Sequence record: MT446423.1
DNA length: 64,000 nt
From: Escherichia virus TH58
Direction: 5' to 3' (one strand)
The notes below the pieces were generated by a model that saw nothing but the letters and a program-made list of their open reading frames with translations, was not told where the DNA came from and searched no databases. This document shows positions 42,749-44,138 of the stretch, one piece after another (the stretch's first letter is position 1; each line of letters opens with the position of its first letter). The position numbers and the translations under genes are program-made.

Positions 42749-42756
42749 TATAAATA
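42749..42756 (+). promoter_or_regulatory. late promoter TATAAATA upstream of rIII
   Basis: Exact TATAAATA immediately after gene 31 stop. Confidence 0.45.
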
Positions 42757-42872
42757 ACTATATGAAGAGAACACTCTTCTAAGCGGTAGCCTACAACTGA
42801 GAGACTTGTCGAAAGAAGGTGAAATTCAGACGAACGTGGCTACTAAATATTATCTCGAATTGAGAATTTAAA

Positions 42873-43121
42873 ATGATTAAACAATTACAACACGCTCTCG
42901 AACTGCAACGCAACGCATGGAATAACGGTCATGAAAACTACGGTGCATCTATTGATGTTGAAGCCGAAGCTCTTGAAATCTTACAGTATTTCAAACATCT
43001 GAATCCAGCACAAGCCGATCTTCGCGATATCCTGGTCCAGAAAGATGAATTGAAATATGCTAAGCCTCTGGCTTCTGCAGCACGTAAAGCAGTTCGTCAT
43101 TTTGTTATTACCCTGAAGTAA
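42873..43121 (+). CDS. rIII: lysis-inhibition accessory protein RIII
   Basis: 82 aa, same as T4 RIII; position between 31 and 30.x genes. Confidence 0.8.
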   Translation: MIKQLQHALELQRNAWNNGHENYGASIDVEAEALEILQYFKHLNPAQADLRDILVQKDELKYAKPLASAARKAVRHFVITLK

Positions 43122-43148
43122 GTTAAATCGAGGAGCCGTCGAACTGTT

Positions 43149-43177
43149 TGATTAATGATTTGCGAATCATTATAGTT
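43149..43177 (+). promoter_or_regulatory. sigma70-like promoter TTGATT-N17-TATAGT with palindrome AATGATT-tgcg-AATCATT in spacer
   Basis: Read directly; lies in unusually long 264-bp non-coding stretch. Confidence 0.4.
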
Positions 43178-43385
43178 TTAAGACCTCAACAGTTTTACGG
43201 TGTACCTCTTGAATGTATTTTGTACTATCACGCGTCAGAAAAAGGTTATCTGTCTAAGTCGTGGTCGGTATGATGACGGGTTTATGGTTATCCTGTCGTT
43301 AAATATCCAAAAACCTATGTTCCCCTCGAGGGCTTGCGCAGGCAATGTCAATAAGTCCTGCATTTTCATTTAAAGAGAATTTATA

Positions 43386-43565
43386 ATGGCAAAACAAGCT
43401 AAAGCAAAGAAAGCAGTTGAAAAGAAAGTTGATGGTACCTCTAAACGCGCTGGATACAAGCGTGGGTCGAACTCTCGTATTAATCAAACAGTTGAGAAGA
43501 TCATGCGCAGAGCACGTGCAGTTCTTCGAGATGATGCTTCTCGTTTTGGAAAGGTTGTTGCATAA
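43386..43565 (+). CDS. small basic protein, 59 aa (MAKQAKAKKAVEKKVDGTSKRAGYKRGS...)
   Basis: Not in ORF track; ends 5 nt before a strong terminator; preferred over track ORF 43417-43602, which reads through that terminator. Confidence 0.45.
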   Translation: MAKQAKAKKAVEKKVDGTSKRAGYKRGSNSRINQTVEKIMRRARAVLRDDASRFGKVVA

Positions 43566-43570
43566 TTTTA

Positions 43571-43593
43571 GGGAGACCGAAGTCTCCCTTTTG
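43571..43593 (+). terminator. rho-independent terminator (GGGAGACCGAAGTCTCCC + TTTT)
   Basis: Perfect 7-bp stem and T-run. Confidence 0.7.
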
Positions 43594-43625
43594 TGCGTTT
43601 AGGGCAGAAAAAGTTTAAAAAAGAT

Positions 43626-43654
43626 GTTTACTCTCCTGTAGGATGTGTTACTAT
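43626..43654 (+). promoter_or_regulatory. T4 early-type promoter
   Basis: GTTTAC 43626-43631, TGt-TACTAT 43646-43654. Confidence 0.5.
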
Positions 43655-43695
43655 AGACTTGTACCACCTAATCAATAAAACAATCGGAGAATAAA

Positions 43696-44064: not shown

Positions 44065-44068
44065 AACA

Positions 44069-44108
44069 GTTTACTTTGGTACAGGTTATGTTATTATAGA
44101 CCTGTACC
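44069..44108 (+). promoter_or_regulatory. early-type promoter; -10 region bracketed by 8-bp inverted repeat GGTACAGG / CCTGTACC
   Basis: GTTTAC 44069-44074, TATTAT 44092-44097, inverted repeat 44078-44085 / 44101-44108. Confidence 0.45.
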
Positions 44109-44138
44109 AACAAACAACTTAAACATCTGGAGAATAAA

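Follow-up and report, generated by a model that had tools for sequence, protein, structure and literature searches.

Comparative evidence for a structured, plus-strand RNA cassette between genes rIII and 30.9 of T4-type phages

Here we describe the 264-nucleotide (nt) gap between the genes rIII and 30.9 in a 64,000-nt stretch of DNA from Escherichia virus TH58 (MT446423.1), which is referred to as the window throughout. The window belongs to a T4-type phage of the genus Mosigvirus (RB69-like), and its best matches are the phages JN02, PhAPEC2 and ATK47 with 96-97% identity. Comparison of the gap with its counterparts in other phages firmly supports a functional region of structured RNA read from the plus strand, in which an H-type pseudoknot, named E1, is maintained by compensatory base changes. 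Whether this region is in addition an autonomous and mobile non-coding RNA cassette which works as RNA in its own right is, in our estimate, an even chance. Phage T4 has the same arrangement of genes around a gap of 244 nt, at 130,541-130,784 of NC_000866, and phage records with this gap number roughly 800. T4 is the best-studied lytic phage, yet this gap of 244-264 nt is unannotated in the T4 reference records, in which no feature lies inside the 244 nt, and among the papers found none describes an RNA between rIII and 30.9. The stretch under study is as follows:

43122-43385, plus strand: gap of 264 nt between the rIII stop codon (43119-43121) and the 30.9 start codon (43386), carrying the proposed cassette of RNA modules

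The sequence of the gap is more conserved than the synonymous positions of the genes around it. Among 213 bases that can be aligned with T4, 206 are identical (96.7%), as compared to third-position identities of 72% in gene 31, 70% in rIII and 88% in 30.9. When the window region, 12 diverse loci and the gap of ATK47 were compared with Rfam, nothing beyond chance matches of the snoRNA type (E > 1) appeared, and no Rfam covariance model came near its gathering threshold for the gap even with E up to 10. Since the identity exceeds that of third codon positions, no reading frame conserved across the gaps of the relatives could be found and neither PHROG nor Rfam gave a match, the nucleotide sequence of the gap is, as judged from this comparison, under strong purifying selection and yet non-coding. 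An initial annotation of the window had proposed that this is an unusually long non-coding stretch between rIII and a small basic open reading frame (ORF), and a small structured RNA rather than simple spacer. The first is confirmed and the second supported. The gap measures 264 nt between the end of rIII at 43121 and the start of 30.9 at 43386, its conservation is strong, no protein gene covers it in orthologous regions, and covariance analysis across related phages revealed compensatory changes which support the pseudoknot and a long stem-loop. With a crude gene set, in which the median gap is 57 nt, it ranks third among the uncovered stretches of the window, and one of the two longer ones is the cut-off end of the window itself.

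A small protein gene that has escaped annotation would be the simplest objection to a non-coding reading, and there are ORFs that could be taken for one: the gap holds two, of 41 and 57 amino acids (aa), the latter being a GTG-initiated ORF at 43200-43373, and the T4 record X17657 carries an annotated 97-aa 'ORF D' (11.1 kDa) which runs through the 3' half of the gap into 30.9. A 13-codon upstream ORF (43345-43386) may be added as a third candidate. However, the frame of 30.9 is closed in the window by TAA at 43371-43373, frames differ between T4 and the Mosigviruses owing to indels of 1 nt, locus L018 lacks the ATG with which the upstream ORF begins, and neither internal ORF matches a PHROG or Pfam family. 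We therefore treat ORF D, whose frame the indels break, as an open-frame artefact and consider a protein gene extremely improbable. The 13-codon ORF (ATG TCA ATA ... TTA TAA) ends as TAATG at the 30.9 start codon, and in T4 a 1-nt indel brings its ATG into the frame of 30.9; as the ATG is missing in L018, this ORF is not conserved.

The alignment of the gap among relatives is blocky, with whole modules present or absent in addition to indels of 1 nt. In the window a 31-nt piece that follows the rIII stop codon has been deleted (between 43124 and 43125). A 40-nt block carrying a promoter-like sequence is missing from phage teqdroes (L005) and from L027, and a 52-nt block (43217-43268) is missing from T4.

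Gap sequences for the structural comparison were gathered from 40 IMG/VR loci, 19 metagenome loci and several GenBank phages, and individual loci are given below by their L numbers. The best-supported element of the gap, which emerged from covariation and which the initial annotation had missed, is made up of the following parts:

43269-43323, plus strand: H-type pseudoknot E1
43275-43280 and 43292-43297, plus strand: E1 stem S1, GACGGG paired with CCTGTC
43286-43289 and 43312-43315, plus strand: E1 stem S2, GGTT of the hairpin loop paired with AACC of the tail
43298-43311, plus strand: A-rich loop 3 of E1 (GTTAAATATCCAAA), conserved, as is the 5' flank TATGAT

The hairpin stem of E1 varies by compensation, being GACGGG/CCUGUC in the window and GUCGUAG/CUAGAC, GUGGA/UCCAC or GGCGAGG/CCUGCC elsewhere, while the hairpin loop (..GGUUAU) and the 3' tail (GUUAAAUAUCCAAAAC) are conserved. 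The loop in turn pairs with sequence beyond the A-rich tail. This pairing is GGUU/AACC in the window and reaches 7 base pairs (bp) in L046 (GAAAGUU/AACUUUC), L099 (AGUAGUU/AACUACU), L034 (GUUGGUU/AACCAAC), L030 (CAAGGUU/AAUCUUG) and L021 (GGUAGUU/AACUGCU). Two diverged lineages have unrelated loop-tail complements, namely GUGAG/CUCAC in L020 and UAGUGGG/CCCUACUA in L065. Across 23 distinct sequences, 84.5% of the cells of both helices are paired, as against at most 53.5% when the partners are slid; the covariation score is 0.345 (at most 0.138 in the slid controls), and eight pairs change on both sides, compared with two to four in these controls. Helix 1 is paired in 91.8% of its cells, with pair 8-30 occurring as UA in 12, AU in 10 and GC in 1 of the sequences and pair 9-29 as CG in 18 and GC in 5. 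Helix 2 is paired in 78.2%, and its pair 19-48 is GC in 17 and AU in 6 with no unpaired case. As the hairpin stem and the loop-tail pairing each covary, E1 can be assigned to the class of H-type pseudoknots. Folded as a single sequence, the putative transcript does not surpass shuffled sequences (z = +0.55), a control which, like the other shuffle-based controls used here, ignores phylogeny; the case for structure therefore lies in the comparison between phages and not in folding energy.

A covariance model of the E1 hairpin finds a single match per genome, always on the coding strand, and these matches sit either between rIII and 30.9 (T4-type loci) or within a transplanted cassette (phi92-like loci, described below). 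In T4 the pseudoknot corresponds to 130,604-130,659 of NC_000866. A full scan of the 64-kb window with this model gave no second copy, and three genome matches to a strict E1 pattern failed the model. The distance from E1 to the start of 30.9 is about 60 nt in the window and about 300 nt in Klebsiella-type loci, where other modules lie between. L039 and L062 possess a 30.9 homologue and show neither a match to the E1 model nor a recognised pseudoknot; L065 has no model match, yet has a pseudoknot-like fold.

Upstream of E1, the first part of the gap forms a second structure that is supported by comparison. Its parts, together with the promoter-like sequence it encloses, are:

43130-43208, plus strand: long bipartite stem-loop (about 80 nt), identified by RNAalifold and as an inverted repeat
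43130-43133/43205-43208 (GAGG/CCTC), 43135-43139/43197-43201 (GCCGT/ACGGT) and 43141-43144/43192-43195 (GAAC/GTTT), plus strand: outer helices of this stem-loop
43153-43172, plus strand: apical hairpin TAATGATT-TGCG-AATCATTA, from the inverted repeat 43153-43160/43165-43172
43148-43176, plus strand: sigma-70-like hexamers TTGATT (43148-43153) and TATAGT (43171-43176) with a 17-nt spacer, a putative promoter with a predicted start near 43183

Using 17 sequence variants, RNAalifold predicted 24 pairs in the long stem-loop, five of them with compensatory changes. An inverted repeat (43136-43148/43188-43200) encloses the promoter block, and where the inner 40 nt are lacking (teqdroes and L027) the outer stem persists in the form of a short hairpin. 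Covariation extends to the '-35' hexamer, whose first base forms a T-A pair in the window and a C-G pair in T4. The stem-loop also contains two invariant G.U pairs, and the other strand would give C.A at these places, which argues for an RNA of the plus strand and not for a feature of duplex DNA. At the apex, L026 and L047 differ at both partners of the pairs in alignment columns 29-44 and 30-43 (A-U to U.G or U-A, and U-A to C-G). This variant retains the positions of the hexamers (TATGTT), the changes in its spacer being compensatory pairs, and the 20 nt after the -10 hexamer are unpaired and yet conserved. With these positions retained, a weak internal promoter inside the stem-loop is possible, although it is neither proven nor needed. 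The hexamers match the consensus at 9 of 12 positions; six such sites occur in the region as compared to 7.2 expected from shuffles, and so by themselves they are not above chance.

The remaining modules of the window flank E1 on either side:

43228-43264, plus strand: hairpin D, the first copy of a hairpin with a UAAGU bulge, with an outer stem CACG/CGTG, an inner stem CAGA...TCTG and TAAGT at 43255-43259
43319-43336, plus strand: conserved 18-nt string GTTCCCCTCGAGGGCTTG, in relatives GTWCCCYTNGAGGRCTTG, which contains a palindrome at 43323-43332
43338-43361, plus strand: hairpin E3, the second copy of the UAAGU-bulge hairpin, with the stem GCAGG/CCTGC and TAAGT at 43352-43356
43362-43380, plus strand: U-rich ATTTTC, predicted in minimum-free-energy folds to pair with the Shine-Dalgarno (SD) region GAGAAT of 30.9

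The UAAGU hairpins have outer stems that are unrelated among lineages (GCAGG, GAACTGG, GCTCTATG, GCTTACTG), usually contain a small inner hairpin and share TAAG.C as an invariant feature (UAAG(W)C on the 3' side). Hairpin D is missing from T4. E3 does not look like an intrinsic terminator, as its stem has 5 bp, its loop 14 nt and its tail reads ATTTTCATTT, and the terminator scan made no call; the equivalent hairpins in L021 and L046 appear more terminator-like. The segment GGGCTTG could pair with TAAGTCC and so compete with E3, and the central position of this pairing shows no covariation (G.U, A-U, G.A, A.A). A regulon of such hairpins within the window was looked for and rejected, since a crude scan gave 24 candidates as compared to 38.8 in shuffles. 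Occlusion of the SD sequence is predicted as UUUUC/GAGAA in the window and elsewhere as UCUCC/GGAAGA (TCTCC...GGAAGA) or CCUC/GAGG. The hairpin upstream of 30.9 with the stem GAGAGGT/ACCTCTC holds CTTAC in L021 and the reverse complement GTAAG in L023, so that its loop looks as if it had been flipped at the DNA level.

The 18-nt string lies after E1 in the window; in phages of the L021 type it directly follows the rIII stop codon and precedes E1. Its perfect palindrome, CCCTCGAGGG, is specific to the lineage. Relatives mostly have CCCTTGAGGG, or else CCCTTCGAGGG or CCTCTTAGAGGG, and RNAalifold places no consensus pair here, so that a hairpin at this site was rejected.

These results recast the picture of the initial annotation, in which three palindromes and a sigma-70-like promoter formed a regulatory hub. 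The three palindromes do exist, at positions one base off from those first given: AATGATT-TGCG-AATCATT at 43154-43171, CCCTCGAGGG at 43323-43332 and GCAGG-N14-CCTGC at 43338-43361. Each is unique in the window, and for the last two none is expected in shuffles. Likewise the promoter hexamers are present, but their occurrence does not exceed the shuffle expectation. As parts of a hub, however, the palindromes dissolve into other structures. The first is the tip of the 80-nt RNA stem-loop, the second a lineage-specific accident within a conserved string that is otherwise non-palindromic and has no consensus fold, and the third one of two copies of the UAAGU-bulge hairpin.

The same slot holds further modules in other phages. 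In many sister phages one unit of the gap is about 91% identical to the 36-nt repeat of the RNA antitoxin ToxI, and it is located just after rIII or after the pseudoknot (L009 1749-1780, L029 1834-1863, L075 11891-11925 on the minus strand); T4 has a diverged positional homologue. The ToxI repeat itself was verified to form tandem arrays upstream of toxN, on pECA1039 as well as on 74 other plasmids, and no paper was found which reports a ToxI-like unit in T4-type phages. Another module, of 134 nt (GGCAAGTGCATGC...ACAGATAAGAG), is present in the gap of 407 phage records (Klebsiella, Escherichia, Enterobacter, Yersinia and others), for example at about 1857-1990 in L034 and about 1890-2023 in L019. 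Of its 40 predicted pairs, 13 show compensatory changes, and it matches neither Rfam nor E. coli. It is absent from the window, where hairpin D occupies its position. The order of modules also varies, the string and the 134-nt module standing on one or the other side of E1 depending on the lineage.

A T4-type cassette has also entered another, unrelated group of phages. In 17 phi92-like records (Stephanstirmvirinae, Justusliebigvirus) it lies inside a cluster of tRNA genes, as in L044 1290-1640 (phage PD06, NC_052653.1 about 95,470-96,080), L115 and L116. This copy is circularly permuted, running from the unit after the rIII stop codon through the pseudoknot and E3 to the ATG of 30.9, to which the last 28 rIII codons are joined; 30.9 itself is missing from the locus. 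The insert is flanked by a direct repeat of 13 nt (TTTATTGGAGATT) next to tRNA-Gln. One sub-lineage, known from records marked UNVERIFIED, carries another T4-type variant, which has hairpin D and a pseudoknot like that of teqdroes; here 1 nt is deleted from the fused rIII/30.9 ORF, whereas the RNA modules have remained intact. Judging from these records, the phi92-like case shows that the cassette can persist where the gene that follows it in T4 is missing. The permuted arrangement fits the mini-circle shuffling that has been proposed for PeSL cassettes (PMC2839356, PMC4122927). Four UNVERIFIED records labelled 'Campylobacter phage' (MG065639.1, MG065645.1, MG065656.1 and MG065689.1) are classified as phi92-like Justusliebigvirus and have the sequence of E. 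coli phages, and their host label is probably wrong.

Taken together, the region is a chain of modules. It begins with the long stem-loop and continues with hairpin D, the pseudoknot E1, the conserved 18-nt string and hairpin E3, up to a hairpin predicted to occlude the ribosome-binding site (RBS). The comparison bears out the helices, their plus-strand specificity and the modular make-up, and the modules probably fold independently. We infer that it is transcribed within transcripts running from rIII to 30.9, and perhaps also from the weak internal promoter of sigma-70 type. It would then act at the level of RNA and largely on its own, most likely as an RNA that binds protein, and its role would be neither that of DNA operator sites nor merely that of a switch for 30.9. 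Autonomy is favoured by the variable order and spacing of the modules, by the antitoxin-like and 134-nt RNAs found in the same slot and by retention of the cassette where 30.9 is lacking. Several observations weigh against this. S2 has only 4 bp in the window and in T4, and after correction for register its cognate pairing exceeds non-cognate pairing by little, 5.7 against 4.9 of 7. Diversity within the T4/Mosigvirus clade is low, so that part of the covariation goes back to few events. E1 is absent in L037, L038 and L040-L042, distant phages which do not have 30.9. The searches run gave neither a counterpart of the pseudoknot in bacteria nor any resemblance of the gap to plasmids or E. coli genomes. 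In the window the ToxI-like unit is gone through the 31-nt deletion, and no ToxI match occurs. Identity between the phi92-like copy and T4-type phages reaches 99.7%, which leaves long-term retention of the copy unproven, and the frameshifted records are the UNVERIFIED ones. Finally, in T4-type phages the cassette always stands directly upstream of 30.9 and ends in the RBS-occluding hairpin, which fits a role in cis.

The main rival is accordingly a structured leader of 30.9 acting in cis, in which the pseudoknot would bind a ligand or a protein, for example the basic gp30.9 itself. Pseudoknot, E3 and RBS-occluding hairpin would then set the translation or the read-through of 30.9, similar to the autoregulatory leader of gene 32 or to a small pseudoknot riboswitch. 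The single, coding-strand pseudoknot upstream of 30.9 in T4-type genomes and its absence from the distant phages without this gene are as such a leader would have it, as is the succession of E3 and a U/C-rich tract able to pair with the SD sequence, which recurs in several lineages with different sequences. The conservation of unpaired nucleotides in loop 3 is likewise seen in pseudoknots that bind ligands or proteins. On the other hand, the pseudoknot stands at anything between about 60 and about 300 nt from the start codon, unrelated modules having come to lie in the interval, no conserved alternative pairing of the anti-terminator or anti-sequestrator kind was found, and no riboswitch family matches. 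Furthermore, L039 and L062 have the 30.9 homologue without a recognised pseudoknot (L065, lacking a model match, has the pseudoknot-like fold), and the phi92-like phages keep the cassette without 30.9. We regard the cis leader as a reasonable but somewhat less likely reading, and it does not exclude the autonomous cassette.

The hub of the initial annotation, an early promoter whose spacer palindrome serves as an operator next to further protein-binding palindromes, would act in DNA. The promoter-like hexamers at 43148-43176, the retention of their positions in L026 and L047 and the conserved unpaired 20 nt past the -10 hexamer are compatible with it. Nevertheless, sites of such quality are not above shuffle expectation, the '-35' hexamer of T4 is CTGATT (3/6) with its base change matched by the pairing partner, several phages do without the whole promoter block, the helices contain G.U pairs that are meaningless in duplex DNA, and CCCTCGAGGG is non-palindromic in relatives; a hub of this kind is improbable. 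Still less probable is that the gap is neutral debris, that is, scars of PeSL-type shuffling and of deleted genes which recent recombination has kept similar. The region is indeed hyperplastic, PeSL-like cassettes of terminator and promoter adjoin it (43566-43695), indels lie at module borders, and the 88% third-position identity of 30.9 to T4 hints at a shared recombination tract. Yet the 96.7% identity of the gap tops even that of 30.9, the helices are maintained by compensatory changes, distant lineages retain the pseudoknot although its sequence differs among them, and another phage family has captured and kept the cassette. A more far-reaching idea, which we consider rather unlikely, is that the gap serves anti-defence as an 'RNA island', in which decoy RNAs form an exchangeable array that spreads between unrelated phage families as a mini-circle. 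One of its modules would mimic the ToxI antitoxin, and the pseudoknot and the UAAGU hairpins might be mimics or sponges directed at other RNA-binding toxins or nucleases of the host. This idea draws on analogy with the ToxI-like module, which the window lacks.

If the autonomous cassette is real, T-even phages encode conserved structured RNAs outside Rfam, comprising the pseudoknot, the UAAGU-bulge hairpins, the 134-nt RNA and the ToxI-like unit. These RNAs would move as a unit between phage families and would be candidates for RNA-based counter-defence or for a new form of post-transcriptional control.

The surroundings of the gap are those of a T4-type phage, with the plus-strand gene order cd, 31.1, 31, rIII (42873-43121), the gap, 30.9 (43386-43565), 30.8 and 30.7. 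The gene following the gap is:

43386-43565, plus strand: gene 30.9, encoding a basic protein of 59 aa (phrog_1427, function unassigned), with a strong terminator downstream

In many phage records (for example AV112, pEK20 and PHB12) gp30.9 is labelled '1,4-alpha-glucan (glycogen) branching enzyme, GH-13-type', clearly a propagated mis-annotation. An 'ori type 2 repeat', annotated in ATK47 adjoining the start of 30.9, was treated as an uninformative pattern label. Downstream of 30.9, the segment 43566-43695 consists of a strong terminator (GGGAGACCGAAGTCTCCC followed by Ts), a promoter of the T4 early type (GTTTAC...TACTAT) and the RBS of 30.8, a typical PeSL-like junction, and a similar junction stands ahead of 30.7 at about 44065-44138. 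The gap between gene 31 and rIII (42749-42872) contains a late-promoter motif, TATAAATA, near 42750-42760 and a sigma-70-like site at 42825-42853. Early, middle and late control has been reported for rIII (PMC9409239), with which these two sites are consistent.

Among known systems, ToxI is the RNA antitoxin of the type III system ToxIN, a pseudoknot RNA of which a mimic, pseudo-ToxI, exists in the Pectobacterium phage PhiTE (PMC3475682). E1 resembles it as a compact pseudoknot with conserved A-rich single strands, and sister phages carry the ToxI-like unit; however, E1 has no sequence similarity to ToxI, is single-copy instead of tandem and has no toxin gene nearby. With the T4 structured RNAs rnaC and rnaD the cassette shares the status of a phage RNA without assigned function, and the phi92-like copy lies among tRNA genes, but it has no sequence similarity to them, and no relation to rnaC, rnaD or tRNA-Gln was found.

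The mRNA leader of T4 gene 32 contains an autoregulatory H-type pseudoknot in its 5' untranslated part, followed by an A/U-rich sequence, and is conserved among T-even phages. E1 is likewise an H-type pseudoknot upstream of a T4 gene, with A/U-rich sequence after it and conservation among T-even phages. It differs in locus and sequence, in its long (13-15 nt) and conserved loop 3 and in having no known link to gp32, and the model gave no second copy in the window. The preQ1-I, SAM-II/V and guanidine-III riboswitches are similar to E1 in combining a compact hairpin, a loop-tail pairing after an A-rich linker and conserved unpaired nucleotides, and small pseudoknot riboswitches also share the downstream gene, the terminator-like hairpin and the occluded RBS. 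Unlike them, E1 has no Rfam match, no alternative pairing of an expression platform that could be found and a variable distance to the gene, and it survives where the gene is missing.

PeSL elements have a stem-loop just upstream of a promoter (Fig. 3 legend, PMC4122927), and in the T4/PST group this promoter is TTTACW-N17-TAYWAT, and the element ends with the SD sequence and a start codon (PMC2839356, PMC4122927). In the window, by contrast, the palindrome 43153-43172 lies between the -35 and -10 hexamers and not upstream of the promoter, TTGATT matches TTTACW at 3 of 6 positions, TATAGT fails TAYWAT at position 5, and the ATG of 30.9 follows the -10 hexamer at a distance of 209 nt. The cassette is moreover single-copy, with its promoter-like sequence buried in a larger conserved RNA stem. 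With three of the four defining features lacking, it is not a PeSL by the published definition. What it has in common with PeSL elements is the hyperplastic region, the association of a sigma-70-like promoter with a stem-loop and the indels at its borders, the promoter block being exactly absent in teqdroes and L027; and the circularly permuted phi92-like copy between its 13-nt direct repeats resembles what the mini-circle model of PeSL exchange describes.

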